From Patescibacteria group bacterium (lineage in GTDB: Bacteria; Patescibacteriota; Patescibacteriia; UBA2169), in NCBI GenBank assembly GCA_018830465.1, contig JAHJSI010000048.1, positions 1 through 33,768 on the forward strand: a stretch of 33,768 nt of DNA, in the 5' to 3' direction. Below, piece after piece: positions 5,489 to 33,768 of this stretch (position 1 is the stretch's first letter; each line of letters begins with the position of its first letter). The notes below the pieces were generated by a model that was not told the origin of the DNA, did not search any database, and saw only the letters and a list, made by a program, of their open reading frames with translations. A program made the translations under genes and the position numbers.

Positions 5489-6810
5489 GTTTCTCTATTG
5501 TTTAATATAAATTTTTCTTTTATCCAATATTTTCGCAATTTACCTGTTAAATAAAGCGAGCCAGTGATGAGAAGCGCGTCATTTGTGCGCAGTTTTTTTA
5601 TTGTCTGCTTCAATGCTTTTAGCGAATCATGTTGAATGGATTTCTTTTTAAGTTTTTTGGCGTCAGCCAAAGGCTGGTCAGCCTCTGGCTGAAATTTTGA
5701 AAGTGTTTCTGGGGCATAAGATGTCCTGTCCGCGGTTTTAAATTCAGTAAATACTATTTTATCTGAATACGGAAGTATTATGCTGATCATTTTGCGCGCG
5801 TCTTTTGTATTGCTAGCAGCAAAGATAGTATATAGTTTATCATATGTCAAATTTTTTAGGTTGTGGACAACGCTTTTCATCTTGTCTGGATTATGCGCGC
5901 CATCAAGTATAATTAATGGATTTTTTTGCATGATTTCAAAGCGGCAAGGGAGAAGTTGTGTGCTTTTTATTGCAGATGAGATAATATTATTTTTAATGCC
6001 AATGTGTTTGGCAATTGCTTTAGCTAATGCTTTGTTTGCTAATTGGAATTTATTGTCTGATTTAATATGATGATATGATGTTTTTTTGCTTTTACAGATT
6101 TGTTTGAAGATTTTTAGAATATGAGGTCTTTTTTCGGTTGTGAAGAAATGCGTATTTAATTTTATAATTCCTGCTTTTTCTTTCGCGATTTTTGGCAATG
6201 TCTTTCCAAGAAGATGCGTATGGTCTAATCCAATATTTGTGCAAGCGCTGATTGATTTTTTAATAATATTTCCAGCGTCATATCTTCCACCGCATCCAAC
6301 TTCTAAAATTACGTAATCGCATTTCATTTTTTTGAAATATAGAATAGAGAGCGCGAAAAAGATTTCAAAATAGCTTGGCCTGCCGTATTTATAATTTTTT
6401 TCTCCGCCCAAGGAGGATCCGCATTGGGCGGACATGTCATTTATAATAGGTTTAACTTCATCAACAAGTTGCGCGAATACAAGAGGATCAATGAGCTTAT
6501 CATCAACCTTAATTTTTTCAATCGAAGTTGTGCAGTATGGGGAAGTAAAGGAGCCAACTTTAAACCCTGCTTTATATAATATGTTATGCAGATACGCTAC
6601 AGTAGAGCCCTTGCCTGATGTGCCGCTTATGTGTATAAAGCGAAAACCTCTCACAGGATTGTGGAGGCGTTTTATCAATTCTTGGGTACGTTTTAAGTAT
6701 TGCTCTGGCTGCGCGCTGTGCTTTTTCATGTATGCCTGGTCATGCGCGCTTGATGCGAGAGTTTCCAGATATTTGACAGCAGAGTAATATTTTTTAAATG
6801 ATTTAGTCAT
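5473..6810 (-). CDS. folC: Mur-ligase family protein, folylpolyglutamate synthase-like
   Basis: 445-aa ORF. P-loop HISGTSGKGST, plus NIGLDH and DGAHNP motifs typical of FolC/Mur ligases. The stop overlaps the topA start by 16 nt. FolC versus another Mur-ligase paralogue cannot be settled by eye. Confidence 0.7.
   Translation of the reverse strand: MTKSFKKYYSAVKYLETLASSAHDQAYMKKHSAQPEQYLKRTQELIKRLHNPVRGFRFIHISGTSGKGSTVAYLHNILYKAGFKVGSFTSPYCTTSIEKIKVDDKLIDPLVFAQLVDEVKPIINDMSAQCGSSLGGEKNYKYGRPSYFEIFFALSILYFKKMKCDYVILEVGCGGRYDAGNIIKKSISACTNIGLDHTHLLGKTLPKIAKEKAGIIKLNTHFFTTEKRPHILKIFKQICKSKKTSYHHIKSDNKFQLANKALAKAIAKHIGIKNNIISSAIKSTQLLPCRFEIMQKNPLIILDGAHNPDKMKSVVHNLKNLTYDKLYTIFAASNTKDARKMISIILPYSDKIVFTEFKTADRTSYAPETLSKFQPEADQPLADAKKLKKKSIQHDSLKALKQTIKKLRTNDALLITGSLYLTGKLRKYWIKEKFILNNRETCQIL
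5663..5692. repeat. 30-nt GC-rich double-hairpin repeat, copy A (in-frame in folC)
   Basis: TCAGCCAAAGGCTGGTCAGCCTCTGGCTGA. 25/30 identical to the prfB copy. Its reverse complement is 26/30 identical to the comEC copy. Encodes QPEADQPLAD in folC (minus strand). Confidence 0.8.
6403..6432. repeat. possible diverged copy of the 30-nt repeat (in-frame in folC)
   Basis: The reverse complement TCCGCCCAATGCGGATCCTCCTTGGGCGGA matches the comEC copy at 20/30 positions. It is 30 nt long and sits in the same codon phase, encoding SAQCGSSLGG versus SARGGPASGW. It also forms a 9-bp stem, TCCGCCCAA/TTGGGCGGA. Confidence 0.35.
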
Positions 6811-6811
6811 G

Positions 6812-6952
6812 TTATTCTCGTTTGTCTTTTCGCAGCCACCAGACTAATCCATATACCAGAGGAGTGTCTATTAACGCGAACGCGACTTTGAAAAGCCAGT
6901 AGGGGATAATTAATGAAAAGATTGATAGTTTCTGCCGAGTTGAAATTTTCAT
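6812..6952 (-). CDS. candidate 46-aa small membrane protein (below ORF-track cutoff)
   Basis: ATG 6952-6950 to TAA 6814-6812: MKISTRQKLSIFSLIIPYWLFKVAFALIDTPLVYGLVWWLRKDKRE. Hydrophobic core with basic ends. It fills the dprA-folC gap, starting 10 nt after the dprA stop and stopping 1 nt before the folC ATG. No SD, so it could be chance. Confidence 0.4.
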   Translation of the reverse strand: MKISTRQKLSIFSLIIPYWLFKVAFALIDTPLVYGLVWWLRKDKRE

Positions 6953-6962
6953 AAGATATAAG

Positions 6963-8060
6963 TTAGCGCGCTAACGCGTATTTCATCGCGCCTATGTGTT
7001 TTACTTTACCTTTCATTTCCATAAGCGTTAATGTTGCATTTATAGCGCTTGTTGGCATTTTAGTCAAGCGCGTGAGCTCATCAGCGTGGATTGGCTCAAG
7101 TGATAAGTGTTCTAGAATTTTTGCCTCGTCCGCGCTGTCCGCGGTTATTTTTTGAGCCGCGATATAATCAGTTGCTTGCTTCAGATTAAGAGCGTCTAAA
7201 ATGTCTTGAGCGTTTGTGACTGGATGAGCTCCCATTTTTATTAAATTATTCGTGCCAAAAGATGTCTCGCTTGTAATTGTGCCTGGCACCGCGAAAACTT
7301 CTCTGTTTTGATCTAAGGCATGGCGCGCTGTAATTAAGGCGCCTGATTTTTCCGCTGCTTCTACAATAAGAGTTCCAAGCGATAGGCCGGAGATTACTCT
7401 GTTGCGCTGTGGAAAATGCTGTTTATATGGAGGAGTGCCTATTGGATGCTCTGATATAATGCATCCTCCTGTGTTTATTATTTTTTCTGAAAGCATTCTA
7501 TTATGAACTGGATAAATATTTATTTTTTCAATCCCGCACCCTAAAACAGCGACTGTTTTTCCGCACGCGTCTAAACATGCTTGATGAGCTATCGCATCAA
7601 TTCCCAAAGCTAAGCCGCTTACAATTATAATGCCGTTTCGCGCGAGTTCTGATGTGATTATTTGCGCTGCTTGTTTTCCGTATTCTGAAAATTTTCTTGA
7701 GCCAATCACTGCTAAAAGAAAATCATCATCATTAGGCAAGGCGCCTCTATAGAATAGGGTAGGAGGCGGATCATAAACTTCTTTTAAAAGTTTTGGATAT
7801 TTTTCATCTTCTAGCGTGAGTATTGTAATTCCTTCTTTTTCATGATTTTCCATTTCTTGGTCTAAATTAATCTCCGCGCGCATGCGAATGAATTCTGCAA
7901 TGCATTTTTCACCAAATCCAAGTTGCTCTAACTTGGTCATTGGAACATTCCACGCATCTTCTAAAGATGAGCAAAATTTATATAATTTACTGAATCTTTT
8001 TGGGCCAATGCATGGAATTTTGGCTAATCCTAGCCAGTATTTTGTGTTTTTGTTTGACAT
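6963..8060 (-). CDS. dprA: DNA processing protein DprA/Smf
   Basis: 365-aa ORF. Rossmann-like core GSRKFSEYGKQ..IIVSGLALGIDAIAHQ and LIVEAAEKSGALITARHALDQNREVFAVPG, with a C-terminal winged-helix-like tail. The dprA-topA neighbourhood is common in bacteria. Confidence 0.92.
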   Translation of the reverse strand: MSNKNTKYWLGLAKIPCIGPKRFSKLYKFCSSLEDAWNVPMTKLEQLGFGEKCIAEFIRMRAEINLDQEMENHEKEGITILTLEDEKYPKLLKEVYDPPPTLFYRGALPNDDDFLLAVIGSRKFSEYGKQAAQIITSELARNGIIIVSGLALGIDAIAHQACLDACGKTVAVLGCGIEKINIYPVHNRMLSEKIINTGGCIISEHPIGTPPYKQHFPQRNRVISGLSLGTLIVEAAEKSGALITARHALDQNREVFAVPGTITSETSFGTNNLIKMGAHPVTNAQDILDALNLKQATDYIAAQKITADSADEAKILEHLSLEPIHADELTRLTKMPTSAINATLTLMEMKGKVKHIGAMKYALAR

Positions 8061-8081
8061 TTTTTATGTTTGTGGTATAAT
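8054..8081 (+). promoter_or_regulatory. near-consensus extended -10 promoter for the 8141 small gene
   Basis: TTGACA (8054-8059, overlapping the dprA start codon on the other strand), 16-nt spacer containing TGg, TATAAT (8076-8081). Confidence 0.65.
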
Positions 8082-8140
8082 ATTGGACATTAACAATCAA
8101 GAAATATCCTATTCAATCTTTCATGCGCAAGGAGAGACTC

Positions 8141-8440
8141 ATGACAAAGAAAGAAAAGGCGCAAGCGATTGCAATGCATTCCGCGATGCAAGAGGCAGGA
8201 ATTTCAGCAAACATGATTCTCAAGTTTGCCACAACGCCAGAGGTCCATGGATATTATAGGGGTCTGTTTCTCGCTAGCCATCGCCAGTCAAACCCCTATA
8301 TCCTCATTCGCAAGATTGAGGAGCGCAAGAAGAATGGCTTGCGCATGAACCAGCGCAGACAGCCGACAGCTCGTTCAATCCATCGGACTCGCCTTGTCAT
8401 TGAGAGGCACAAGAACGGCCAACAGCTCGCACTTTTCTAA
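8141..8440 (+). CDS. orphan basic small protein (99 aa), GC-rich relative to flanks
   Basis: AAGGAGAG (8129-8136) lies 4 nt before the ATG at 8141. The ORF-track start at 8123 has no SD. Product: MTKKEKAQAIAMHSAMQEAG...RKKNGLRMNQRRQPTARSIHRTRLVIERHKNGQQLALF. It has its own promoter and terminator. No family recognised. Confidence 0.6.
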   Translation: MTKKEKAQAIAMHSAMQEAGISANMILKFATTPEVHGYYRGLFLASHRQSNPYILIRKIEERKKNGLRMNQRRQPTARSIHRTRLVIERHKNGQQLALF

Positions 8441-8464
8441 GATCCCTGGGATTATATCACAAGA

Positions 8465-8499
8465 GAGGCATCCAGAAAATCGGATGCCTTTTTCTTTTT
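8465..8499 (+). terminator. intrinsic terminator after the 8141 gene
   Basis: Stem GGCATCC (8467-8473) / GGATGCC (8482-8488), 8-nt loop, followed by TTTTTCTTTTT. The T-run abuts the mfd stop codon (8498-8500). Confidence 0.75.
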
Positions 8500-10936
8500 A
8501 CAATTGCTTTACGCATATTTCCAGTTTTTTCATCCAATCAGAACCAAGGTCTTTTTTTGGCACTTTTATTTTTTCTGTTCCATACTGCCAATGCGGACAT
8601 TTGTCCAGAATTTTAGCAAATATTCTTGGCTCAATCGGCTTTAAGGTTTGCAGAATAATATATTGCTCTTGAGAAGCAGAAGATGTAAAAGCTGTATCAA
8701 TCGCGCTTATGCCAGCTTGCTTTCCAAGAATTTTAAGAGAGAAAATATAGAAAAGATTTTCAATCGGCTTTGGAAGCGCTCCATCTTTCTGGAGTTCATT
8801 TTTTGCGCGCGTGATCTCATCAATAGAATCAATCAAAGCCCATTCGTGATAAAGCTCAATTCGTTTTTGCTTGTCTTTCTCAAAGAATTTAGGAATCCTT
8901 GCTTCAATAGGCAAGTCAACAGAAATATCAGACAGCATTTCACTTGGCGCGCCTGATTTGATTTCTTCAACAGCATTATTCAGCAAGCGAAGATACAATC
9001 CTAATCCAATTGACTTCACATGCCCATGCTGGGCTTTTCCTAGAACATTTCCAACGCCTCGAATCTCCATATCAGCTTGGGCAATATCAAAACCTGCCCC
9101 AAGTTCTTTCGCGGCTTCTAAAGCTCGCAAGCGTTTTTCCGCTCCACCAGTTAATTTTTGCCTTCTGAAGAAAAAGTAAGCATATGCCTGCCTTGATCCT
9201 CTGCCGATTCTTCCGCGAATTTGATGCAATTGCGATAGCCCGAATTGAACAGCATTATCAACAATTAAAGTATTAACATTAGGAAGGTCAACTCCGTTTT
9301 CAATAATAGTTGAGCAAACAAGAACATCAATTTTTTGCTTGTCAAAATCATGCATTTGTTTAGCCATTTCCTGCTCTGGCATTTGTCCATGAAGCATTCC
9401 AATTTTTATTTTTGGCAATAAATCCTGAAGTTCCTGCTTTTTAAGGTGCATTGTCTCAACTTTATTGTAAAGATAATACACTTGTCCTTTGCGTTTTATT
9501 TCACCTTGAATCGCTTGGGCAATATGCTTTTGATTATAGGATTCTATAATTGTATTAATCGGCTTTCTTCCGCCGGGAGGAGTGGAAATTGTGGAAATAG
9601 CGCGCACTCCTGATACTGCCAAATGCAGAGTTCTGGGAATAGGCGTTGCTGTTAATGTGAGCACATGGGATTCAGAACGAAGTCTTTTTAACTGCTCTTT
9701 GTGGTTAACTCCAAATCTTTGCTCTTCATCAATAACAATAAGCCCTAGATTTTTGAATTTAACGTCTTCTGATAAAAGGCGATGAGTGCCGATAATAATA
9801 TCAATTTTGCCTTTTTTTATTTGATCAATTGTTTTTAACTGCTCTTGTTTTGATTGAAATCTTGAGAGCGCGGCTATGTTAATTGGAAGATTTTTTAATC
9901 TGTCAGTAAATGTGTCAATATGCTGCTGAGTAAGAATTGTGGTAGGGGACAGAACAGCAACCTGGAATCCTTCTAAAGCGACTTTAGCGGCAGCGCGGAT
10001 TGCTATTTCTGTTTTTCCAAAACCAACATCACCGCAAACTAGTCGGTCCATTGGGATTTCATCACTCAAATCATCACAAATTGTTTCAATAACTTTTTTT
10101 TGATCGTCTGTTTCAGTATAAGGGAAAGACTTAGCAAGATCTTGCTCAATTTTTTCAGCTCTTGGTATTGCGATTGCTTTTGAAAGCTGGCGTTTTGCCT
10201 GGGTATTAAGCAGTTCGCGCGCGTGATGCAAAGTTTCTATGCTTACTTTGCTTAAAGATTTGCCCCAGCCAGAAGAAGACAAGCGGTTCAACGTAGGGTT
10301 GGGATCGCCAATGTATTTTTCCATTTTCTCGGCAGATGTGACAGGCAAGAACAAGGCATCATTTTCCGCGTAGCATAGTTTAAAATATTCTCTTGAAATA
10401 TTGTCAATCTTTTGCTCGACCATTCCATCAAATTTCGCGATCCCATGATCAATATGAACAACATAATCTCCTGTTTGCAGATTCTTTATAAATGAGGTCA
10501 GTTTGTATTTTTGTTTTTGTTCGTCTTTGGACGCGAATAATTTTGTTAATTGATGAATGTTTGCCCGCGTAAAATTGATTTCCACATCAGGCGAAGAAGG
10601 GAACGGTTCAAAAATAATATATTTGATTGGCGTATTGCAATTATTCTGGACAGGCGGGCGATCAAGAGCTTCTTGTTTAGTTAAAATTATTAAGCGATTA
10701 TGGCTGTTTTTTGTTTTTAAATGCGTTATTAAATTTAATTTCGCAAATTCATCATCAACCAAAAATAAAATCCGCGATTTGATTTTATCGCTATGATCTA
10801 TTATTTTTTCAAGCAAAAATGCATGTATTACAGGATTTGTGGGGATTTTTACAACTATTTTTTGCTTAGAATTAAGTTTTTCCGCAATACGCTTAACATC
10901 CTCCGAAATATCCGGAGGAGCTTGTCTTTGCTCCAT
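8498..10936 (-). CDS. mfd: transcription-repair coupling factor Mfd, N-terminally short form
   Basis: 812-aa ORF. CarD-like RNAP-interaction motif GDYVVHIDHGIAKFDGM already at about residue 156. SF2 motifs: VCGDVGFGKTEIAIRAA, VIDEEQRFG, TATPIPRTL, QLHQIRGRIGRG. Confidence 0.9.
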   Translation of the reverse strand: MEQRQAPPDISEDVKRIAEKLNSKQKIVVKIPTNPVIHAFLLEKIIDHSDKIKSRILFLVDDEFAKLNLITHLKTKNSHNRLIILTKQEALDRPPVQNNCNTPIKYIIFEPFPSSPDVEINFTRANIHQLTKLFASKDEQKQKYKLTSFIKNLQTGDYVVHIDHGIAKFDGMVEQKIDNISREYFKLCYAENDALFLPVTSAEKMEKYIGDPNPTLNRLSSSGWGKSLSKVSIETLHHARELLNTQAKRQLSKAIAIPRAEKIEQDLAKSFPYTETDDQKKVIETICDDLSDEIPMDRLVCGDVGFGKTEIAIRAAAKVALEGFQVAVLSPTTILTQQHIDTFTDRLKNLPINIAALSRFQSKQEQLKTIDQIKKGKIDIIIGTHRLLSEDVKFKNLGLIVIDEEQRFGVNHKEQLKRLRSESHVLTLTATPIPRTLHLAVSGVRAISTISTPPGGRKPINTIIESYNQKHIAQAIQGEIKRKGQVYYLYNKVETMHLKKQELQDLLPKIKIGMLHGQMPEQEMAKQMHDFDKQKIDVLVCSTIIENGVDLPNVNTLIVDNAVQFGLSQLHQIRGRIGRGSRQAYAYFFFRRQKLTGGAEKRLRALEAAKELGAGFDIAQADMEIRGVGNVLGKAQHGHVKSIGLGLYLRLLNNAVEEIKSGAPSEMLSDISVDLPIEARIPKFFEKDKQKRIELYHEWALIDSIDEITRAKNELQKDGALPKPIENLFYIFSLKILGKQAGISAIDTAFTSSASQEQYIILQTLKPIEPRIFAKILDKCPHWQYGTEKIKVPKKDLGSDWMKKLEICVKQL

Positions 10937-10969
10937 AATTTAATTATATATTAGCGCAAATTCTGTGTA

Positions 10970-10999
10970 TTGACAAGTGTGATTAAGATGTGCTAAAAT
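10970..10999 (+). promoter_or_regulatory. strong + strand promoter pointing into the mfd-pth spacer
   Basis: TTGACA (10970-10975), 18-nt spacer ending TGc, TAAAAT (10994-10999). Both flanking genes are on the minus strand, so it can only drive the spacer transcript. Confidence 0.55.
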
Positions 11000-11008
11000 T
11001 TTCTACTA

Positions 11009-11166
11009 TTCTTCTTATTCATCTGCTTGTAGTCCGTCTTGCGCGGGAACCCCTCCTAACCTGCGACGGACATCAAGTCAGGATTAATTGTTTTTACGAT
11101 TAACCCTGCGCTACAAGCAGATGCATGAGAAGAACCATGTACCGCTCACTCCGCTCAAGTACAGGG
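11009..11166 (+). ncRNA. candidate structured small RNA of unknown class (alternative: MITE-like inverted-repeat element)
   Basis: A 24-nt arm (11009-11032) pairs with 11111-11134: 22 Watson-Crick pairs, 1 G-U and 1 mismatch. It encloses two hairpins, 11033-11070 and 11079-11108. A third hairpin at 11135-11166 has a loop carrying CCGCTCA twice. GC-richer than its surroundings. No ORF. Confidence 0.4.
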
Positions 11167-11194
11167 CAAGCTAGTAAAATTGGGATGAAAATAT

Positions 11195-11752: not shown

Positions 11753-11756
11753 AAAA

Positions 11757-14539: not shown

Positions 14540-14616
14540 GAGTATTATAGATTTGTTGCAATCTCTTATTTAGTAATGATACTATTATACAAGATTAGAA
14601 GTCTTTAGTAAATAAG

Positions 14617-14644
14617 TTGCAAATTATTGAAATTTTGCTATAAT
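14617..14644 (+). promoter_or_regulatory. extended -10 promoter for lepB-hisS
   Basis: TTGCAA (14617-14622), 16-nt spacer ending TGc, TATAAT (14639-14644), 11 nt before the lepB ATG. Confidence 0.55.
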
Positions 14645-14655
14645 CATTATCGTTT

Positions 14656-17712: not shown

Positions 17713-20700
17713 ATGCGCAAATTGAGCAAAGTTTTTTTGCAGAATCATCTGAAAGCGCGTTTGATGCTGGCTATTTTGTCTTGTTTTTTTATAGCAGGCT
17801 TTTTTGTTGTGAATGCAGATTCTTTGGTTTTTAATATTGCATACGCGCAAGGCGACAATTATGGCTTGGACAGCGGATTTCAGGAAGTAGCGATTCAATC
17901 AGACAGAGATATAAAGCAGATTATTGCTTTGATTATAAATATATTTCTTGGATTTCTTGGGATTATCGCGGTTATTTTGATTTTGTACGCGGGATACATG
18001 TGGATGACTGCCGGCGGAAATGAAGAAAAGGTTGCTCAAGCTAAATTAATTCTGCGCAATGCTGTGATTGGCTTGGTAATTGTTTTGTCTAGCTGGGCAA
18101 TCGCGTCTTTCGTAATTAGCCGTTTGAGCGATGCTACAGGTGGTGGTGGTGTTGGAACTTGGTGTTCTTCTGATCCTGCGCCTTCGTGCGTTCCAGATAA
18201 TGCTAAATGCGCGCTAGGTTTGTATTGCGATGGTTCATGCGTGTGTCGGTTTGCCGGCGGAGGCGGGGGTCTTGGCGATAATTTTGAAATTAAGAATTTC
18301 CAAACAGCGCATGATGGCCCAACGCCAGATGATGATGTATATCTTTGCAGTAGTGTTGGAACAATTTTTAATGAAATGCTTATTGATCCGACAGTTCAAA
18401 ATGCATGGAGCGATGATACTCTTGAAATTAGGCGAATAGATGACAATGGAACCGCGGTGGATGAAAAAATGTCAGCAAACATGCAAACAGCCAGCAATAT
18501 TATTGATATAAGCCCCACAGAAGCAGGTCTAGACAATAATCAATGGCCTGAGTATAGCAAATTTGAAGTCCATATTCCTAAAACAATAGAAGGCATATCA
18601 GGAAGGACTTTGAGCAATTGCCTGCCGCCAGCGTGCAATGATAGAGTTGCTTATTATTCTTGGGAATTTTTTACAACTGATAAAGATGATGTGCAAGATC
18701 CATATCTTGTTTCAACATATCCTGAAATAACTCCGGAGAATAATAATGTTAATCGGAAAATGACATTTAGTTTGGTATTTTCAGAATCAATAAAAACTGT
18801 CAGTTTTCTTGATGGAGATACTTTTAAAACAGGCCAGACTAATATTATAGTTGAAGAAGCAGCGAGCGGCGCAATAATTCCTTCGGATCAATTTTTTGCG
18901 CGAGTTACTGATGATGGAATTTATTTTAGTTTGAAAGATACTTATGTTGCGTCTTATGATGGTTTGCTTGGACATTTTGATCCATATACGCGTTATAAAA
19001 TTACTGTTCAAGGAATCAAAGATCTTTGCAATAGAGATATGACATTTCAAGGACCATGGTTTTTTACCACAAACGGCGTGACTGCTGGAGTGCAGGGAGT
19101 GTATCCTCCTAATGGATTTAATAATACATGTCCAAGTTCAGAAACATTTATTCAGTTTAGAACTTCAATGTATGATATAACAACTGACTCATGCGCTGTT
19201 GGAAATAGCTTAGTGCAGGGTGGTTTAGGAATTTCTGAACGCACTGCTTTTAATGTCGCATTAACAGGACAAGAAGGCGGAGATTTTCCAGTAGCAGGAT
19301 GGGATCCTGAGAATCCGAATAAATATTGCAGAATGTATGAATTCGCGCCAATTTCTAACTGGCTTGGCATTGGGACTGCTTATAATCCAAAAGTCACTTA
19401 TAAAATTTCGCCTGATGCGAGTCCTGTGACATTTAACCAAGCAGATGATGAATGGGAATTTACTGTTGTGCCAGAGGACCAGTGCGCTTATCCGCCGTAT
19501 ATTACAAGCATAAGCCCTACTAAAGGAGCTTGGGGGCAGTGCGTTACTATTAGAGGCAGGCATTTTGGAACAGGGCCTGTTGCTGATCCGCCTGGGGCAT
19601 ATTCAAAATTAAATCTAGAAGAGCATAGCACAAATCCTGCTTACCGAGAGAATCGAGGAGTTGATGTTACGGATCCAGCAATAATAACCTTTTGGGAATC
19701 TGGCGCGGGAAAAGATGGCATTTATTGGACAAGCGCTTCTAATTGGACAGAAAATTATATTGTTGCTGATGTAGAGGACTTGAAATCAACATCTCAATTG
19801 CACCAGGATAAAGATTTAGATGTTGATGTAAGAATTAGCTCTTATATAGATCTTGATGACAATGGAACTAAAGAAACAGAATTGCCTAGCAATACTATTC
19901 AATTTTTAATCGATGATTTAAATTATATAGGACCTTGTCTTTATAATATTAGGCCTGAGCGCGGTTATTGGGGAGATAAAGTGACGCTTACAGGACGTGA
20001 TCTTGGTTCAGGCGTTGATCCTGATAAAGTAACATTTTATAATGGTTTAGATTTGAGCGCTTCCACTATTCTTGGTGATAGCGGCACATGGACATCCAGC
20101 GAAGTTAGAAATATTATTGTGCCTGAATATGCTTTTCAAGATCCCGCGGGAGACCAAGAGGTTTTTATTACAGTTAATGGAGTAGATTCAAACTGGCTTG
20201 ATTTTGATATTAGCGCGGGCAAAGGCGACACATGCTCTTCTGTGCCAGCTTCTTGCTCTCCAGAACCAAGTATTTGCGGTTCTGGGCTAGAGTGCCGATT
20301 GCCAAGTGAGCCAGAGGAATGCACATGCCAAATTCCAGACAGATTAATAATTCGCAACCCTGCTCCAAGCGCGTGCGCTGATTCATGTACTAACGCGGTA
20401 ATTAGTTTTGAAATAACAAAGAATATTAATACAACAACAGCTGATAATACTACTATCAAACTTTTACAGTGCGCTGATGATAATTGCGTATGGGCTGATG
20501 GAACTGATGTTTCAATTACTCCAACGCCTGCAAGCAAGAGAGTGGAAATAAATCATCAATTAAATATTAATAAATGGTATCGAGTTGCTGTTTTAGGCGG
20601 AGCTAGCGGATTAAAAGCATCTGATGGAAAAGAAATTTATAATACAAATTTTGATGCTGGAGGAACTCAAGCTTATTCATGGAAATTTAGGACAGGGAAT

Positions 20701-23556
20701 TCTGCTTGCGGAGTATATAGAATAGACATGTCTCCTTCTGGAGGAATATTATATGAAAACAAAAGCTATGAATACACAGCTGTATCATACTCAAGACCTA
20801 ATTCATGCTCAAGTACAGGCCAGCAGATCGCGGCAGTATTTAATTGGGCAGGTAAAGAAACGACTTCAGATAATGGAGCAAATGATTGTGAGAATAATTC
20901 CGCGCACCCAAAGCTTGGCTCAATGAGCCCTGCTTCATCAATAGCAATTTCAACTGCTTCTGTTTTAGCTCTTTCTGTTGGCGCAGAGCTTCCTGCATGG
21001 ATTTGCGCTGAATCATCTGGAGTATATGGATCAGCTCCTGTAATATTGAAAGCGAGTTGTAAATCTGCCGCGGATTGCACAATTGGCTTGTGCGTTGCTG
21101 ATTGTGTTGAAGGAATTTGCCAGCCAAAAATTTATCCGGCTCCAGGATTCAGTCCTCAATCTGGAGAGATAGGAACATGGATGACAATTACTGGATGTTA
21201 TTTTGGAAATGATTGGGGACAAGTGAAAACTGGAGGCACAGATGCTTTGCGGCCTGATGAGGCATTATGCGGAAATACTTGGAGCAATACGCAAATTATA
21301 GCAGAAACGCAATCTGATGGCGTGGTAGAAGTTATCCGTATGGGAGATGGACAAAGCGATGATACTAATCCAGCGCAGTTTAATATAACTAGTGATGTAT
21401 GGCCAGCAATTTGCAGAGTGACTCCTGCACAAGAGAGAATTGGAAGAGTTATTGAAATCAAGGGGCAAAATTTCGGCTTATTTTCTGATTTTCAAACTAG
21501 AACTGGTTCAGGAACAGATAATCCATCATATGGCGCGACATACGCAAGCCCGCCGCAATCTGATAAAACCACGGATGAAGTGTCAGAAAGCGCTGGGTGT
21601 GCTTCAGGCGGATGGGGACCTGACCATATTTGCATAAGAGTTGTTCAGGGCGCGCCAATTGGAGAAGGAGTCGTAGAAGTTATTCGTGATAATGTTTCAA
21701 GCGCTGGATATTATTTTAAAGTCATAGACATTAGCACGCGGCCGCAAGATGCGGAAGATTTATATGTTGCATCATATACTCCTGGAGAAGGAAATTTAGC
21801 GTGTCTTAATATGATTATAGAAGTAGGGCTTGTGAACAAGCTTGATGTTGACTCGCTTGATTCAAGCAAATTCTATGTGCAAGAATCAGGCGGTGCGATT
21901 ATTGAAGGAACAATCCAAGCAGAGATTGGAAGAAATTCTAAATTGCGATTTATTCCATCTGCTCCATTAACAACTAGTACAAATTACAAAATTATACTCA
22001 AAGGAGGCACAGGAGGATTAAGAAGTTTATCTGGTGGAATTATTGTTGAGAGTGGTGTTTGTTCACTAACTGGAGGTGATTGTGAAATTGCGTTTAATAC
22101 AGTTGATAATGCTGGAGATGACATGTGTAAAATATCGCATTTAGAAATTGCGCCGAATTCCCCAGTATTTACTTGCGCGCATGATAATTGCGATAAAGAT
22201 ATTGATTTTACAATGACTGGGCGTCAAACAAAATTTTCAGCTGTTCCTATTAATTTTTATAATCAGCCGGCTTTAAGCAATTCAGATATATTGTGGTCAT
22301 CAAGCAATGTTGATATCATTGCTGATTCATATAATTCAGGCCAAAACCCTTTGCCATGGGCTAATTTTAGAGTTATGCCGAAAGACGGCAGTTCAATTAT
22401 TAGAGCATACTCTGAAGATGCGAATGTTTCCGGCTCAACAGAAGCGCGCGTGTTTTTATGCGAGAATCCATGGCCTACTGGTATGGATGTTGACGGAGAG
22501 CCATTCCAAGACAGAATTGGATATGATACATCAGAGAATCCAAAAACAAACTTTTCTACATTTTATTGTCGAGACAAGGGAGAGAGCGGAACAGCAGATG
22601 ATTTGCCAGAAATTTCTAAATCAGCTGAATTTGGCCTCACAACACCAGGAAGAAGCGTTCCTGGGCTTTTGAAGGAAGTATTTTTCACACAGCCATATTC
22701 AAAAACATGTATAGAAAGTGATGAAACAGAAAAAATTGGCATATCTTGTTCATCTAGTACTGATTGTGATCCAGGAGGCGTATGCATTGGCGAGATTGAC
22801 GCGATTGGCATTCGAGTGCTGAAGAATCCAAATAATCTATCTGTAAGCGAATGGTATAATTCTCAGGACTTTGAAAAAGGAAGTCCGAAATCAGTTCAAA
22901 TTGACAAATTTGACGCCTTACAAGACGGGCGCACAATTTATGTGAGCGCGATTAATGACACAGATATTACACCAGGAACTGCGTCTATTTATAATAATAT
23001 TTATCTAATTTCAATAAATGACAAAGCTCATCCAGACACTATTGAAATATATAATCAGTTAGTTGAGAACTGGAGATTCTTGGTAAATATCATAGACAAT
23101 GATGATAAAGAAAAATTACGGCGGGATTTGCAAAGAGTTGATGATGCGTATTATATGGCTAGTGTTATTGAGAATAAGGGATATGCAGTAAAACTTGAGT
23201 CAGGCACTAGGATGAAAGGGCATTCTGTGAGTGTTTGGCCTTCATGGGATCAGGCATTAGTTCAAGATTTTGGCGCGTCTTTTCCAAAAGATCCTGTGAA
23301 TAAGGTATATTGTTCAGATCTATTACAGCCAACCTGCTGGAATGGAAGCAATCTTGTGTGCAATGGAAATTTTCCTGATGGATCTAAATCAACATATTAT
23401 AGGTATAAATATGTTGAAGGAATCCAGAAACAAGCGATTTTGCAATTTAATCTTGAATATAGCACAAGCGCTGACTGGGCTAATGTATTTGTTGGTCCTG
23501 GGTGGACGCCAGGTACAAATGCGTGTGTTAATATGGAATATATAAAAATTTATTAG
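17713..23556 (+). CDS. giant (1947 aa) cell-surface protein: signal/TM, T4SS-pilin (TrbC/VirB2)-like two-TM module, Cys-rich knots, multiple Ig-like and IPT/TIG-like domains
   Basis: Uninterrupted 5.8-kb ORF. Pilin-like module at residues about 61-138 (IINIFLGFLGIIAVILILYAGYMWMTAGGNEEKVAQAKLILRNAVIGLVIVLSSWAIASFV). Repeated motifs of SbsA/Big-type (PYLVSTYPE..FSLVFSESI) and IPT-type (ITSISPTKGAWGQCVTIRGRHFG, IRPERGYWGDKVTLTGRDLG, SPQSGEIGTWMTITGCYFG, VTPAQERIGRVIEIKGQNFG). Cys-rich linkers such as CSSVPASCSPEPSICGSGLEC. Confidence 0.85.
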   Translation: MRKLSKVFLQNHLKARLMLAILSCFFIAGFFVVNADSLVFNIAYAQGDNYGLDSGFQEVAIQSDRDIKQIIALIINIFLGFLGIIAVILILYAGYMWMTAGGNEEKVAQAKLILRNAVIGLVIVLSSWAIASFVISRLSDATGGGGVGTWCSSDPAPSCVPDNAKCALGLYCDGSCVCRFAGGGGGLGDNFEIKNFQTAHDGPTPDDDVYLCSSVGTIFNEMLIDPTVQNAWSDDTLEIRRIDDNGTAVDEKMSANMQTASNIIDISPTEAGLDNNQWPEYSKFEVHIPKTIEGISGRTLSNCLPPACNDRVAYYSWEFFTTDKDDVQDPYLVSTYPEITPENNNVNRKMTFSLVFSESIKTVSFLDGDTFKTGQTNIIVEEAASGAIIPSDQFFARVTDDGIYFSLKDTYVASYDGLLGHFDPYTRYKITVQGIKDLCNRDMTFQGPWFFTTNGVTAGVQGVYPPNGFNNTCPSSETFIQFRTSMYDITTDSCAVGNSLVQGGLGISERTAFNVALTGQEGGDFPVAGWDPENPNKYCRMYEFAPISNWLGIGTAYNPKVTYKISPDASPVTFNQADDEWEFTVVPEDQCAYPPYITSISPTKGAWGQCVTIRGRHFGTGPVADPPGAYSKLNLEEHSTNPAYRENRGVDVTDPAIITFWESGAGKDGIYWTSASNWTENYIVADVEDLKSTSQLHQDKDLDVDVRISSYIDLDDNGTKETELPSNTIQFLIDDLNYIGPCLYNIRPERGYWGDKVTLTGRDLGSGVDPDKVTFYNGLDLSASTILGDSGTWTSSEVRNIIVPEYAFQDPAGDQEVFITVNGVDSNWLDFDISAGKGDTCSSVPASCSPEPSICGSGLECRLPSEPEECTCQIPDRLIIRNPAPSACADSCTNAVISFEITKNINTTTADNTTIKLLQCADDNCVWADGTDVSITPTPASKRVEINHQLNINKWYRVAVLGGASGLKASDGKEIYNTNFDAGGTQAYSWKFRTGNSACGVYRIDMSPSGGILYENKSYEYTAVSYSRPNSCSSTGQQIAAVFNWAGKETTSDNGANDCENNSAHPKLGSMSPASSIAISTASVLALSVGAELPAWICAESSGVYGSAPVILKASCKSAADCTIGLCVADCVEGICQPKIYPAPGFSPQSGEIGTWMTITGCYFGNDWGQVKTGGTDALRPDEALCGNTWSNTQIIAETQSDGVVEVIRMGDGQSDDTNPAQFNITSDVWPAICRVTPAQERIGRVIEIKGQNFGLFSDFQTRTGSGTDNPSYGATYASPPQSDKTTDEVSESAGCASGGWGPDHICIRVVQGAPIGEGVVEVIRDNVSSAGYYFKVIDISTRPQDAEDLYVASYTPGEGNLACLNMIIEVGLVNKLDVDSLDSSKFYVQESGGAIIEGTIQAEIGRNSKLRFIPSAPLTTSTNYKIILKGGTGGLRSLSGGIIVESGVCSLTGGDCEIAFNTVDNAGDDMCKISHLEIAPNSPVFTCAHDNCDKDIDFTMTGRQTKFSAVPINFYNQPALSNSDILWSSSNVDIIADSYNSGQNPLPWANFRVMPKDGSSIIRAYSEDANVSGSTEARVFLCENPWPTGMDVDGEPFQDRIGYDTSENPKTNFSTFYCRDKGESGTADDLPEISKSAEFGLTTPGRSVPGLLKEVFFTQPYSKTCIESDETEKIGISCSSSTDCDPGGVCIGEIDAIGIRVLKNPNNLSVSEWYNSQDFEKGSPKSVQIDKFDALQDGRTIYVSAINDTDITPGTASIYNNIYLISINDKAHPDTIEIYNQLVENWRFLVNIIDNDDKEKLRRDLQRVDDAYYMASVIENKGYAVKLESGTRMKGHSVSVWPSWDQALVQDFGASFPKDPVNKVYCSDLLQPTCWNGSNLVCNGNFPDGSKSTYYRYKYVEGIQKQAILQFNLEYSTSADWANVFVGPGWTPGTNACVNMEYIKIY

Positions 23557-26542: not shown

Positions 26543-26548
26543 TTTCAT

Positions 26549-27980: not shown

Positions 27981-28030
27981 ACGCATAAATAGAGAGTAAA
28001 ACAAAATTGTTAAGTAAATGATATAATAGT

Positions 28031-29203: not shown

Positions 29204-29205
29204 TT

Positions 29206-29998: not shown

Positions 29999-30004
29999 TT
30001 TTTT

Positions 30005-31231
30005 ATGATTTTTGAGAAACTGCCTAATCATATTAAACAAGCATTAATTATTACTGTAATTATAAGCATTACCGCGGGCGGGCTTGTCGGCGGCATAGTT
30101 GGAATTTTACTTGCTGGATATTCAAGCAAAAATTTATGGCCATATGTGAGTGATTCGCTTGGATTAAATGATCAAATCTCTGATTTTAATCAAAATGGAC
30201 AGAATATCATAAATCAAGCTGTTGTAGAGGACAGCGCCGCGACTCAAGTTGTTGAACAAGCATCAGGCGCGGTTGTTTCTATTATTGTCACACAGGATCT
30301 TTCAGAATTTTATAACAAAACAGGACCAATGTATCTATTTTATTCTATGCCTCCAACAGGAAAACAAGAGATTGGCGGAGGAAGCGGGTTTATTATTACA
30401 ACAGATGGCATGATTGTGACGAACAGGCATGTAGTTGATAATAATAATGCTGAATATACTGTTGTTTTAAACGACGGAACTCAGTATGAAGCCCAAGTCC
30501 TGGCCCGAGATGATCTGAATGATATTGCTATTATAAAGATTGAAGCGGATAATCTGCCTATTTTGGATTTAGGGGATTCTAATTATATAAAAACAGGGCA
30601 AACAGTTATAGCTATTGGAAATTCTTTGGGCGAGTATCGCAATACCGTCACAAAAGGAGTCATATCAGGAATTAATAGGAGGGTTGTTGCTGGAGATAGC
30701 GTCGGTTTTTCAGAAGTGATTGAAGAAGCAGTTCAAACAGATGCTGCTATTAATTCTGGAAATTCTGGAGGTCCTTTGATTGATTTATTTGGAAAAGTTA
30801 TTGGGGTTAATACTGCTGTATCAAGACAAGGGCAGTTGATTGGTTTTGCAATTCCAATAAATAGCGTTAAAAGCGTAATAGATAGCGTGCGTGAATATGG
30901 CAGGATTGTGCGTCCGTTCTTAGGGGTGCGATATGTTTTATTAAATGAAGAAATTGCGAAAGCAAATAATATAATTGATATTAGTTATGGAGCTTTAATT
31001 GTTCGTGGTGAAATATGGACTGATTTGGCGATTGTTCCAGGATCTCCTGCCAATAAAGCGGGAATTGTTGAGAATGACATTATTTTAGAGATTAATGGGG
31101 AGAAAATTACGCAAGAGAATGGTCTGGCTAAAATAATTGCTAAATATAAGCCAAATGACACTGTGCGCTTAAAAGTGTATCATAAAGGCGAGGAAAAAGA
31201 GGTTGAAGCAGTGTTAGTTGAGCGAGAATAA
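30005..31231 (+). CDS. HtrA/DegP-like trypsin-fold serine protease with PDZ domain
   Basis: 408-aa ORF. N-terminal TM segment; catalytic triad contexts TNRHVV, NDIAIIKI and GNSGGPL; PDZ segment GSPANKAGIVENDIILEINGEKI. Confidence 0.9.
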   Translation: MIFEKLPNHIKQALIITVIISITAGGLVGGIVGILLAGYSSKNLWPYVSDSLGLNDQISDFNQNGQNIINQAVVEDSAATQVVEQASGAVVSIIVTQDLSEFYNKTGPMYLFYSMPPTGKQEIGGGSGFIITTDGMIVTNRHVVDNNNAEYTVVLNDGTQYEAQVLARDDLNDIAIIKIEADNLPILDLGDSNYIKTGQTVIAIGNSLGEYRNTVTKGVISGINRRVVAGDSVGFSEVIEEAVQTDAAINSGNSGGPLIDLFGKVIGVNTAVSRQGQLIGFAIPINSVKSVIDSVREYGRIVRPFLGVRYVLLNEEIAKANNIIDISYGALIVRGEIWTDLAIVPGSPANKAGIVENDIILEINGEKITQENGLAKIIAKYKPNDTVRLKVYHKGEEKEVEAVLVERE

Positions 31232-31236
31232 CTATG

Positions 31237-31266
31237 TCAGCCAAGGGCTGACCAGCTTTTGGCTGG
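31237..31266. repeat. 30-nt GC-rich double-hairpin repeat, copy B (intergenic, 5 nt after the htrA-like stop)
   Basis: TCAGCCAAGGGCTGACCAGCTTTTGGCTGG, 25/30 identical to the prfB copy. As + strand RNA it can form a 13-bp stem using G-U pairs. No T-run follows. Confidence 0.8.
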
Positions 31267-31297
31267 CTCTGTAATAGTTTGTAAATTTATATAGATT

Positions 31298-32429
31298 ATG
31301 CAAGATTTAATTAAGAAGTTACAAGAGCTCTTGGGAAAAATTTCTGAGACAGAGAGGTTGCTTTGATATTGACTTGAAAAAGGAAAGAATTATTGAATTA
31401 GAGAAACAAGCAAGCTCTCCCGCATTTTGGGAAAATCAAAAACAAGCGCAAGAGATAACTCATCAGTTATCTGATTTTCGCGATGAAGTGAATACATGGG
31501 AATCACTCTCTCGAGATGTTGTTGGCACTTTGGAAATCGCGCAGGATTTAGAAAAAGAACAAGATGAAGAGCTTGAAAGAGATGTTATAAAAAAGACGGA
31601 GGAGTTGCTTAACAATTTTGAAAGATTAGAGTTTACAGTTTTTTTTCAGGGTAAATTTTCGGCCAAAGGCCGACCAGCCTCTGGCTGGGATGAGCATGGA
31701 GCAATTGTGTCAATTAGCGCTGGAGCAGGCGGAACTGACGCGCAAGATTGGGCAGAAATGCTGGAGCGCATGCTTTTGCGGTATTGCGAGCGCAAGGAGT
31801 TTAAAACGCGCATTCTAGACAGACAGCAGGGCGCAGAAGCTGGAATTAAAAGTTCTACATTTGAAGTAAGCGGCAAGTACGCGTACGCATGGTTAAAATC
31901 AGAATCAGGAGTGCATCGGTTGGTTAGAATATCTCCTTTTGACGCGGATAAGTCCAGGCATACTTCTTTTGCTTTAGTTGATATTATTCCTGATTTGGGC
32001 GATGTTAAGGGCATAGAAATTAAGGATGAAGATCTGCGCGTGGATGTGTTTCGCGCTTCTGGGCATGGCGGGCAGTCAGTGAACACCACAGACAGCGCTG
32101 TCAGAATCGTGCATGAACCAAGCAAAATTGTCGTCACATGCCAAAATGAAAGATCCCAGCAGCAGAACAAGCAGACCGCGATGAAGATTCTGCGGTCGCG
32201 GTTAGCGCAAAAACAAGAACAAGAAAGAGACGCGCAGGAGCGAAGAATTCGCGGTGACGTGAAAAGCGCGGAATGGGGCTCGCAAATCCGCTCTTATGTC
32301 ATACATCCGTATAAAATGGTTAAAGATCATAGGACTAATTTAGAGACATCAGATGTTGATGCAATTCTACGCGGGGAGCTTGACAAGTTCAGCGAATTTT
32401 ATATAAAATGGATTTTTAAGCAAAAGTAA
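31298..32429 (+). CDS. prfB: peptide chain release factor 2, expressed via programmed +1 frameshift (31298-31363 joined to 31365-32429)
   Basis: Frame 0 from ATG 31298 reads MQDLIKKLQELLGKISETERLL, then CTT TGA (31361-31366). The +1 frame continues DIDLKKERIIELEKQ into ORF 31374-32429. SPF tripeptide (RISPFD) and GGQ (SGHGGQSVN) present. Confidence 0.92.
31351..31367 (+). promoter_or_regulatory. RF2 autoregulatory +1 frameshift site
   Basis: SD-like AGAGAGG (31351-31357), 3-nt spacer TTG, slippery CTT, in-frame TGA, then T. Same architecture as E. coli AGGGGG-UAU-CUU-UGA-C. Confidence 0.88.
31659..31688. repeat. 30-nt GC-rich double-hairpin repeat, copy C (in-frame in prfB)
   Basis: TCGGCCAAAGGCCGACCAGCCTCTGGCTGG. 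Codon-phased from its first base; encodes SAKGRPASGW. Confidence 0.85.
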
Positions 32430-32471
32430 ATTCTGTTCTTTTCACATTTATAAAAAGAAGGAGGTGTTAGT

Positions 32472-32732
32472 ATGAGCGTTCAAGCGGTGCATAATGCAAT
32501 CACAGTGGTTCCACTTGGCATGCAGGCAAGAAATAAGGAGGATGCCAAGAGGATTCTCAAAGAGCTGCTCGAAAAAAATGCAACAGGAAAGCTTGAGAAT
32601 CCACTGGAAGATGCTCAGTTGCGCAAGCTGGAACAAGACCTCAAGCGCATCAGCAAGTTGTGGGCGACTCTCTATGGACAACAGACCATTAAGCTGTGGA
32701 TCAGTTTTGCCCGGAGACACGGCATTGTGTGA
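32472..32732 (+). CDS. orphan small protein (86 aa), GC-rich relative to flanks
   Basis: AAGGAGG (32458-32464) lies 7 nt before ATG 32472. Product: MSVQAVHNAITVVPLGMQARNKEDAKRILKELLEKNATGKLENPLEDAQLRKLEQDLKRISKLW... Followed by a strong terminator. No family recognised. Confidence 0.6.
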   Translation: MSVQAVHNAITVVPLGMQARNKEDAKRILKELLEKNATGKLENPLEDAQLRKLEQDLKRISKLWATLYGQQTIKLWISFARRHGIV

Positions 32733-32763
32733 TGTTGACTGATTGTCTGCCAGTGGCGCGTGT

Positions 32764-32804
32764 GAGGCTTTGAATCCAAAATGGATTCAAAGCCTCTTTT
32801 TTTT
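32764..32804 (+). terminator. intrinsic terminator after the 32472 gene
   Basis: Perfect 14-bp stem GAGGCTTTGAATCC (32764-32777) / GGATTCAAAGCCTC (32783-32796), 5-nt loop, then eight T (32797-32804). Confidence 0.85.
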
Positions 32805-32812
32805 GATACAAT
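32804..32812 (+). promoter_or_regulatory. extended -10 element (TGaTACAAT) 6 nt upstream of the comEC ATG, possible leaderless start
   Basis: TGATACAAT at 32804-32812, then ATATAT, then ATG at 32819. Confidence 0.4.
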
Positions 32813-32818
32813 ATATAT

Positions 32819-33768
32819 ATGGAGGTTTCTAAATCAAAAATATTTTTGCTTTGCTTATTGTCATTCGTAATTGGCGTTGGAGTGATGTCGTTTATTTCCG
32901 CCAGAGGCGGACCAGCCTCTGGCTGGGAGTTTTTGGCATCTTTTTATGCTTTTTTATTGTTGGATATTATTGTGTTGATAGTGTTTTGGTCGCATCGCAA
33001 GTACAGAATAACAGCTCTTTTGGGGCTGTTTTTTATTTTAGGCATAGCACGAATGATTTTAGCTCAGCCGAATTTGGAAGATGCTGGCCATATTGCGTAT
33101 TACAACGACCAAGATTTAGTTGTAGAAGGCGTTGTTATTATGGAGCCAGATGTGCGTTTAGATCATCAAAAGTTAACTCTTGAAGTGCGTGGTGTGTCAG
33201 TAAGCGATGATGAAGTCAGTGGACGGCTGCTCGTTAAAACAAATCTATATCCAGAATATAAGTATGGAGAATTGGTGCGCGTCAAATGTGAGATTGAACA
33301 GCCAGAACAAATAGAGGATTTCGCGTATGACAAGTATTTAGCGCGATATGATATTTACAGCGTATGCTGGCGCGGTCAGATCGAAAAGATTGATTCAGGC
33401 AAGGGCAATCCAGTGATGGCTGGCATTTTAGCTGTGAAAATATATTTCATGGATACAATCAATCAAATCATCAGCGAGCCGCATGCCGCATTTCTTGCTG
33501 GTTTATTAGTCGGAGCTAGGCGCGGCATACCTGAATATTTACTAGAAGCTTTCAATCGCACTGGCACAACGCACATTATCGCGATTTCTGGATCTAACAT
33601 TACAATCATCGCAGCAGTCATAATTGGATTTTTACAATTTCTTGGAGTAGCGCGCAAACGCGCGTTTTGGTGGATAAGCGCTGGCATTGTGATATTCGTG
33701 ATTATGACCGGAGCAACCGCGTCAGTTGTGCGCGCTGGCATTATGGGCATCTTTGTCTTGCTTGCTCG
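32819..33768 (+). CDS. comEC: DNA internalisation channel ComEC/Rec2, 5' part (runs off the window end)
   Basis: Absent from the ORF track because no stop is reached. Hand translation from ATG 32819 stays open to 33768: MEVSKSKIFLLCLLSFVIGVGVMSFISARGGPASGWEFLASF...LVKTNLYPEYKYGELVRVKCEIEQP...RTGTTHIIAISGSNITII...TASVVRAGIMGIFVLLA. This is the DUF4131 OB-like segment followed by competence-domain motifs. Confidence 0.85.
   Translation, partial: MEVSKSKIFLLCLLSFVIGVGVMSFISARGGPASGWEFLASFYAFLLLDIIVLIVFWSHRKYRITALLGLFFILGIARMILAQPNLEDAGHIAYYNDQDLVVEGVVIMEPDVRLDHQKLTLEVRGVSVSDDEVSGRLLVKTNLYPEYKYGELVRVKCEIEQPEQIEDFAYDKYLARYDIYSVCWRGQIEKIDSGKGNPVMAGILAVKIYFMDTINQIISEPHAAFLAGLLVGARRGIPEYLLEAFNRTGTTHIIAISGSNITIIAAVIIGFLQFLGVARKRAFWWISAGIVIFVIMTGATASVVRAGIMGIFVLLA
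32897..32926. repeat. 30-nt GC-rich double-hairpin repeat, copy D (in-frame in comEC)
   Basis: TCCGCCAGAGGCGGACCAGCCTCTGGCTGG, 27/30 identical to the prfB copy and in the same codon phase. Encodes SARGGPASGW at ComEC residues 27-36. Confidence 0.85.

Follow-up and report, generated by a model that had tools for sequence, protein, structure and literature searches.

A 30-bp palindromic double-hairpin element carried in frame inside housekeeping genes of Patescibacteria and dispersed across phyla

Introduction

REP (repetitive extragenic palindromic) sequences and REPINs are short GC-rich palindromes of 20-40 bp, often arranged as inverted pairs that enable a larger hairpin, and they are dispersed in many copies, mostly in non-coding DNA and in some cases within genes. 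Their mobilisation is assumed to occur in trans; many REP families are restricted to one species, with only some shared by several. The Rickettsia palindromic elements (RPE) are tolerated as surface peptide segments, and RPE-1, with a length of 100-150 bp, is not known from outside Rickettsia. In fungal mitochondria, GC clusters and double-hairpin elements are GC-rich units in AT-rich genomes that occur between genes as well as in frame within genes; they are organellar, of variable length, and to our knowledge regarded as mobile with no known enzyme. Di Nocera et al. (2013, PMC3733652) described REPs within genes of Opitutus terrae and Rickettsia conorii, with dimers that code for 20-30 residues. 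The present work deals with a GC-rich double-hairpin element of exactly 30 bp, which was found in a stretch of 33,768 nucleotides from a Patescibacteria group bacterium (assembly GCA_018830465.1, contig JAHJSI010000048.1), in the following called the window. It lies there in frame within the genes of release factor 2 (RF2, prfB), of a FolC-like Mur-ligase-type enzyme and of ComEC, and once between genes. In the searched literature, no description of this element family was found.

The 30-bp element resembles the known systems in part. Like the mitochondrial elements it is a GC-rich double hairpin, but the sequences are unrelated and no homology is implied. With REP sequences and REPINs it shares the GC-rich palindromes, the inverted pairing and the dispersal, but its halves abut with zero spacer to give exactly 30 bp, and while many REP families are restricted to one species, its sequence is nearly the same across phyla. 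REP sequences are predominantly extragenic, whereas 72% of the element's copies in Patescibacteria lie within open frames of at least 150 codons, and only in Bacteroidota it is extragenic (6 of 6 copies outside open frames of at least 100 codons), both among the matches listed. RPEs likewise are palindromic and inserted in frame in genes of functional proteins of a small AT-rich genome (PMC3733652), but the 30-bp element is found in many classes of Patescibacteria and in other phyla, and it has entered one particular site recurrently. It is argued below, with a probability of about 60%, that the 30-mers are very small, selfish, non-autonomous palindromic insertion elements of the REP-dimer or RPE kind.

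Copies in the window

The window carries four strong copies of the element and a fifth, decayed one (Table 1). The four strong copies had been noticed in a preliminary description, and their positions and sequences are exact as given there, as are the identities to the prfB copy of 27/30 for the comEC copy and of 25/30 each for the intergenic and the folC copy, the reverse complement of the latter matching the comEC copy at 26/30. The observation as such is thus confirmed; the fifth copy, the inverted arrangement of the halves and the cross-phylum family are additions. Repeat finding groups the four copies with a weaker fifth member at 6401-6434 (family D1), and the half-unit CCAGCCTCTGGCTGG has, with at most three mismatches, 7 matches in the window as compared to 0.31 expected from shuffles. 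A covariance model that was built solely from copies of other genomes assigned 44-53 bits to the four strong copies, with E-values of 1e-12 to 1e-15. In the decayed copy, both short stems are disrupted by two G-to-T changes at positions 10 and 19.

All copies inside open reading frames (ORFs) have a length of exactly 10 codons and leave the host frames open, as had been stated, and by model score the orientation of each copy agrees with that of its host gene or of the neighbouring genes. The host proteins are what they had been taken for: RF2 has the domains PCRF and RF-1, FolC is of the Mur-ligase type, and ComEC has the domains Competence and DUF4131, its copy being located in the loop after the first hydrophobic segment. 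The copies have a G+C content of 60-73%, the window one of 35-41%, rather than the one third that had been estimated for the coding sequence of the genome. The intergenic copy lies 6 nt past the stop codon of an htrA-like gene and 32 nt before the start of prfB. It was considered as a terminator, but there is no T tract or terminator-like site on the plus strand, and this role was rejected. A search of the window with Rfam gave no match at the gathering score, and a permissive threshold in the region 31200-32960 yielded only matches at chance level.

The blocks are insertions

Alignments with homologues of RF2, ComEC and FolC identify the blocks as insertions and not as ancestral protein sequence. 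RF2 reads FFQGKF-SAKGRPASGW-DEHGAIVSISAGAGG, and the ten residues of the block meet an exact gap in 119 of the 119 closest homologues, which are at most 70-78% identical locally and go directly from an aromatic residue to Asp at this site. On the nucleotide level, the prfB copy is inserted between the native Phe codon TTT and the Asp codon GAT (TTT|GAT). As the RF2 insertion is found in three independent assemblies (NCBI, ENA and JGI), it is not an assembly artefact. In the AlphaFold2 model of RF2, the block is part of a coil (residues 93-105) with a pLDDT confidence below 50, which connects a helix of domain 1 with the first strand of domain 2. Exact gaps of ten residues also face the FolC blocks SAQCGSSLGG and QPEADQPLAD in the 119 closest homologues, of which the nearest has 76% identity; the empty site of the second block is inferred to be AAATT|CGCC, and one FolC homologue has a different ten-residue block at site 1. 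Solved structures of RF2 and FolC have matching gaps at the positions of the blocks. The ComEC block SARGGPASGW has no counterpart in any of 150 ComEC cluster representatives, the nearest of which (59% identity) has a loop that is about 10 residues shorter, and judged from this alignment the block is lineage-specific. Altogether, all five window copies are missing from the closest homologues (59-76% identity), and one of them has already decayed.

Clean ten-residue gaps were found also elsewhere, namely in TsaD, HisS, the CCA-adding enzyme, tgt, a ValS-like synthetase, DnaJ and MiaA of the 8-kb loci that were fetched from other genomes. Where filled and empty alleles could be compared in a resolved manner (RF2, FolC site 2 and MiaA, the last with a filled/empty pair at the nucleotide level, AAATTT|AAT), the difference is a precise gain of 30 bp without target duplication.

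A family that crosses phyla

A pattern scan of one genome per species, in which the 3:13 pair, both loops and both end positions were left free, found at least 120 matching stretches, and the element thus has many further copies in other genomes. About ten matches were removed as chance-like, these being from genomes above 60% G+C and without T1 and G30; after removal of these and of identical duplicates, 113 non-redundant copies among the matches listed were used for the copy statistics. By record title, and again among the matches listed, 64 copies (60 loci) belong to Patescibacteria, including Paceibacteria-type groups, Microgenomates, Saccharibacteria, Berkelbacteria, Doudnabacteria and others, 10 to Verrucomicrobiota and Lentisphaerae, 9 to Omnitrophota with one complete chromosome included, 6 to Bacteroidota with the complete genome of Marivirga tractuosa included, and 4 to Planctomycetota. 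Another 13 copies come from assemblies labelled as Pseudomonadota, and at least one of these labels is doubtful. In an assembly labelled 'uncultured Gammaproteobacteria' (L064), a ValS-like protein is 76% identical to a protein of a Saccharibacteria contig (L098) and has the element at the same site. Some of the Pseudomonadota labels among the carriers may be errors of binning or naming.

The covariance model detected additional copies within the same 8-kb loci, up to five in one of them (L030). In viral contigs, a relaxed pattern revealed about a dozen real copies, mostly in non-coding DNA; most matches of the first pass over viral sequences lacked T1 and G30 and were discarded as chance. Another sub-type, TCCGCC-CAA-GGCGGA / TCCGCC-TTG-GGCGGA, is fully symmetric and codes for SAQGGSALGG in MiaA homologues; the decayed folC copy of the window is assigned to it.

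Structure and covariation

The unit consists of two 15-bp hairpin halves in inverted orientation with zero spacer, each half having a stem of 6 bp and a loop of 3 nt; the consensus reads TC-N-GCC-NNA-GGC-N'-GA | YC-N-GCC-TNN-GGC-N'-GR. The positions that the pattern had left free are almost invariant (T1 100% after filtering, A9 93%, T22 96%, G30 97%). The second base pair of the first hairpin (3:13) had been described as G:C in prfB, C:G in comEC and A:T in the two other copies, which is correct, and the compensation claimed from these four copies is strong in the 113: 70 have C:G, 23 A:T, 12 G:C, 6 a wobble pair, and 2 are unpaired, which means pairing in 98% as compared to 52% expected from column composition. 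With 70 distinct sequences, none of 500 shuffles reached the observed covariation score. Stem changes that are compensated in the second hairpin or at other stem positions are seen in copies that had not been selected by the pattern (CCCGCC..GGCGGG, TCGGCC..GGCCGA, TCACCC..GGGTGA, CCAACC..GGTTGG). When the unit is read in phase 0, changes at position 3 are synonymous (Ser), and position 13 begins a Gly codon. By maintaining the pair as G:C, the RF2 copy has exchanged this Gly for Arg, and it is thus the pairing that is kept and not the residue.

The fold with two adjacent hairpins, as it had been proposed, is not the only one: a single long hairpin is the minimum-energy RNA fold in 3 of the 5 copies that were folded, because the halves are complementary to each other. 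The long hairpin in turn is contradicted at 3:28 and 13:18. In the loops, 9:22 is A:T in 93% of copies, and the middle positions 8 and 23 just drift towards A and T. We read the element as a duplex with nested dyad symmetry. An extension of the stem into the flanks was considered and rejected, as the flanks show no covariation. Two loci (L088:6800-6850 and L030:6826-6883) contain copies in which an additional hairpin-forming segment of 21-28 nt is nested in the first half.

Placement and target preference

Insertions are found in coding and non-coding DNA, in either orientation, and without a fixed position relative to gene starts or stops. Within open frames of at least 150 codons, the copies occupy all six phases. 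All six frames of the C:G and G:C types are free of stop codons, and the A:T type, which has a TGA in phase 0, was never observed in phase 0. Sense phase 0, with the reading (F)SAxGGPASGW(D/E/K/N), is the most frequent class. Within the open frames of this length, sense copies outnumber antisense copies by 47:23 (p = 0.006), a count that includes non-independent events, as several sites are common to more than one genome. Patescibacteria have compact, AT-rich genomes, in which the surviving copies are mostly located within genes.

At its borders, the element favours T at position -1 (82%), a base other than T at +31 and a purine at +32 (92%). The same flanks are preferred in non-coding DNA and in each of the frame classes; a T precedes the element in all 28 sense phase-0 copies and in 21 of the 27 non-coding ones. 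There is no covariation between the two flanks, which indicates that they belong to a target and not to a stem.

Turnover and the MiaA site

Several sites in the fetched loci are filled in more than one genome, and in such orthologous pairs the elements are 87-100% identical, with the differences confined to the loops. In MiaA, 7 of the 120 closest homologues carry the block, all at one identical site, and these filled alleles fall into 6 separate groups of a neighbour-joining tree, in which the nearest neighbours, up to 84% identical, are without a block. The scatter over six groups implies that the same loop was hit, or that alleles were exchanged, repeatedly. The filled alleles L129:1714-1900 and L132:3001-3190 can be compared with the empty alleles L130:1261-1420 and L133:3001-3160. 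A scan of metagenomes for an empty RF2 allele found one contig, which was filled.

In a CCA-adding enzyme homologue (L103), SQAPKGGTKSASPW stands at the site at which two others (L003, L015) have SAQGGPA(A/S)GW; this segment looks like an old copy that has decayed on the protein level. A TsaD-like minus-strand ORF of about 458 codons that carries a block (L010) has further extra segments, for example HPEFISGSTDKMLKQVQHDN and SLRAERSNLSVNSAKQSAKS, and in four loci (L010, L087, L095, L101) some flanks contain other GC-rich inverted repeats such as ATCCCGTA...TACGGGAT. There may be further families of in-frame palindromic inserts in these genomes.

Nature and spread of the element

Precise insertion without target duplication, compensated hairpins, a short 5' target and a strand bias fit a selfish palindromic element, and so do the patchy, lineage-specific presence, the decay, the tolerance in six frames and the occurrence as a passenger in an insertion sequence (see below). 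The preliminary description had taken the repeat to be dispersed, structured and in frame, with compensatory changes and in analogy to RPE or REP. Each testable part of this held, and neither of the two outcomes that it had named as refuting was observed; among the four options that it had named, the mobile element is the best supported, and an uptake signal or a function on the RNA level are less likely. The unit enters the chromosome as an exact 30-bp block without target duplication, usually after a T and before a non-T that is followed by a purine. According to this explanation, its survival within genes would be due to the length of exactly 10 codons and to the absence of stop codons from all six frames of the C:G and G:C types, and selection presumably retains only those copies that landed in flexible surface loops, where the element would be translated as a loop rich in Gly, Ala, Pro and Ser and be selfish or nearly neutral for the host. 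Movement may take place in trans by an enzyme that recognises hairpins of single-stranded DNA, either an HUH enzyme of the IS200/IS605 or RAYT type or something similar, and the crossing between lineages could be aided by phages and by homologous recombination after uptake. Gains of copies occur separately in individual lineages, and some of the copies decay.

Several observations weigh against a selfish mobile element. A mobilising enzyme was found neither in the window, where no transposase is among the encoded proteins, nor in the fetched loci. About 3100 ORFs in about 0.8 Mb of the 8-kb loci were probed with sequences of IS608 TnpA and RAYT; the sole HUH transposase is an unrelated IS200-like ORF of a Moanabacter genome, a second match of the probe was false, being a PHP-domain protein, and a RAYT gene was found in neither the window nor the loci. 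The unpaired GTAG or CGTC tag of known REP super-families is lacking in the element: at most 10 of the 113 copies have one within 8 nt of either end, and at inconsistent positions. In orthologous pairs, the stems are 100% identical although the flanks are only about 69% identical, which would be explained by recurrent insertion but equally by selection on the sequence. The loop positions 7:24 are paired in 78% of copies as compared to 47% expected, which the two-hairpin model alone does not predict. Copies of one genome do not resemble each other significantly more than copies of different genomes do (0.60 versus 0.55, p = 0.12), which is not as expected from simple bursts of a local master copy, and sub-families of single genomes were rejected as not significant. 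Finally, 5 of the 7 filled MiaA alleles, as well as the filled alleles of loci L032 and L049, have an extra codon two codons downstream of the block, which none of 113 empty alleles has, and plain transposition does not explain this linkage. The extra codon encodes Ala or Val (NG[A/V]EII versus NGEII), and it hints at a short cassette that was transferred by recombination.

The behaviour of the element is consistent with a single-strand mechanism, given the lack of target duplications, the hairpin ends, the short and T-rich 5' target and the strand bias. With the IS200/IS605 family, it has in common the insertion without target duplication 3' of a short target, hairpin ends, strand bias and precise loss, but no associated transposase was found in the window or the loci. 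IS608 has guide and cleavage sequences, for which there is no room in the 30-bp element with its hairpins reaching the unit ends, and the likeness is therefore one in behaviour only. A hairpin-recognising mechanism of the HUH type can be suggested only tentatively from the way in which the element behaves. It is also conceivable, though rather doubtful, that this is the smallest known active mobile DNA, a 30-bp doublet that is open in six frames, still moves, passes between phyla among ultra-small bacteria, their neighbours and their phages, and repeatedly re-enters the same surface loops of conserved proteins; it would then be driven either by an unrecognised hairpin-specific enzyme or by uptake and recombination.

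A different explanation is that the 30-mers are cis-acting signals of the host that are kept by selection, such as the binding site of a conserved dimeric DNA-binding protein or an mRNA structure for stability, processing or ribosome pausing. The near-invariant sequence outside the loops across phyla (positions 1, 9, 22 and 30 are conserved to 93-100%), the identical stems in orthologous pairs with diverged flanks, the sense-strand excess, the dyad symmetry with the covariation at 7:24 and the lack of sub-families of single genomes all would fit such a signal. However, the distribution is patchy and specific to lineages, also among members of a single gene family, copies decay as at 6403-6432 of the window, both orientations, six phases and non-coding DNA are used with no fixed place as seen from gene starts or stops, neither an Rfam family nor a terminator tail was found, and one copy is carried within an insertion sequence. 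A cis-acting signal is thus an unlikely explanation.

It is similarly improbable that the element spreads mainly by DNA uptake and homologous recombination, with filled alleles replacing empty ones across lineages. Uptake sequences (DUS/USS) occur about once per kb and arise by point mutation and not by insertion of 30 bp, whereas the element is sparser, with about one copy per 7 kb of the window and fewer elsewhere, and all resolved copies are insertions of 30 bp. New sites without homology are out of reach for recombination, but copies lie in dozens of unrelated genes and in intergenic DNA, and the flanks of a filled MiaA allele still resemble the closest empty allele. Nevertheless, the window encodes DprA and ComEC, filled MiaA alleles are scattered over lineages and mostly have the linked extra codon, and the genomes have no sub-families of their own, all of which is in line with such a spread. 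Competence genes are reported to be prevalent in Patescibacteria, and the main carriers seen here outside the candidate phyla radiation (CPR), Omnitrophota and Bacteroidota, are the phyla for which the most frequent gene sharing with Patescibacteria is reported (PMC12455944). The exchange that has been reported independently among these three groups matches the host range of the element (PMC12455944).

That the element is a minimal MITE (a miniature transposable element with inverted repeats) or a footprint, consisting of the pair of terminal inverted repeats that a DDE-type insertion sequence retains after deletion of its interior and moved by the transposase of that sequence, is very unlikely. 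Its halves are indeed inverted repeats of each other, but a target-site duplication was seen in none of the resolved comparisons of filled and empty alleles, and no locus contains an autonomous element bounded by the two halves or halves that flank a gene. In Candidatus Moanabacter, a 1.92-kb insertion sequence that has inverted ends of its own (GACCccATtCGAAAAGC) and, on the opposite strand, a transposase ORF in two parts is found in at least 7 full-length copies of 97-99% identity plus a partial match (L106; the loci concerned are L013, L019, L057, L059, L069, L083 and L106), and the 30-bp unit lies about 50 nt inside its left end. With terminal repeats of another kind at its ends and the unit in its interior, this insertion sequence carries the unit as a passenger. 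The insertion sequence was considered as a clue to the mobilising enzyme and rejected for the same reason. Chance, which is contradicted by the shuffles and by the E-values of the model, an assembly artefact, which the identical RF2 insertion in three assemblies contradicts, and ancestral protein sequence, in view of the homologues without blocks, can practically be dismissed.

Genomic context

The window is a run of housekeeping genes in a Patescibacteria genome from a metagenome assembly. Besides RF2, FolC, DprA and ComEC, it encodes ParA, ParB, RelA/SpoT, TopA, Mfd, Pth, Der, HisS, FtsA, FtsZ, NrdR and HtrA. The coordinates of the copies, their host genes and other features are compiled in Table 1.

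Table 1. Copies of the 30-bp element, host genes and other features of the window
Feature	Position	Strand	Model score (bits)	Remarks
folC-like host gene	5473..6810	-		folylpolyglutamate or dihydrofolate synthase-like ORF, 445 aa, two 30-bp copies
folC copy 1	5663..5692	-	48 (34.9 on plus strand)	gene-strand sequence TCAGCCAGAGGCTGACCAGCCTTTGGCTGA, phase +1, QPEADQPLAD
decayed folC copy	6403..6432	-	15	symmetric sub-type, SAQCGSSLGG
inverted repeat, 24 nt	11009..11032 and 11111..11134			spacer between mfd-like gene and pth
orientation switch of genes	14540..14655			
large ORF	17713..23556			1947 residues
intergenic copy	31237..31266	+	44	A:T type, TGA in phase 0
prfB host gene	31298..32429	+		+1 frameshift site CTT TGA at 31361-31366
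prfB (RF2) copy	31659..31688	+	51.3	G:C type, phase 0, SAKGRPASGW
comEC host gene	32819..33768	+		5' part, truncated by the window end
comEC copy	32897..32926	+	53	C:G type, phase 0, SARGGPASGW

The prfB gene has a classical programmed frameshift: in 31298-31367, the CTT TGA is in frame with the ATG at 31298 and has a purine-rich AGAGAGG a few bases upstream, and the main ORF carries on in the +1 frame past it. At the orientation switch, minus-strand genes on the left give way to plus-strand genes on the right, and the GC skew becomes positive. A cluster of DnaA boxes was not found at the switch near 14.6 kb, and the strand bias of the element could thus not be tied to the replication direction; the switch probably is a divergent promoter region rather than a demonstrable origin. 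The arms of the 24-nt inverted repeat are 92% complementary and 78 nt apart. The 1947-residue ORF has a match to the T4SS_pilin domain and faint matches to Big_5 and TIG, the protein encoded after it contains a bacterial TSP3 repeat, and the ORF probably encodes a large surface protein.

Implications

If the 30-mers are selfish insertion elements, Patescibacteria, the genomes of which are usually thought to be poor in mobile DNA, would harbour a widespread and apparently undescribed repeat family. Essential proteins such as RF2, FolC, ComEC, MiaA, DnaJ, TsaD and aminoacyl-tRNA synthetases would then bear 10-residue passengers of non-protein origin, which would affect alignments, phylogenies, structure predictions and gene calling in these lineages. 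The 30-bp design that is open in six frames, together with the recurrent insertion at the same site, would provide a natural system for studying how selfish DNA persists in genes. Should this be the smallest active mobile DNA, the near-invariant sequence would mark a conserved, undescribed recognition system. The near-identical copies in Patescibacteria, Omnitrophota, Bacteroidota and viral contigs may also serve as a marker for the exchange of DNA between ultra-small bacteria and their neighbours.

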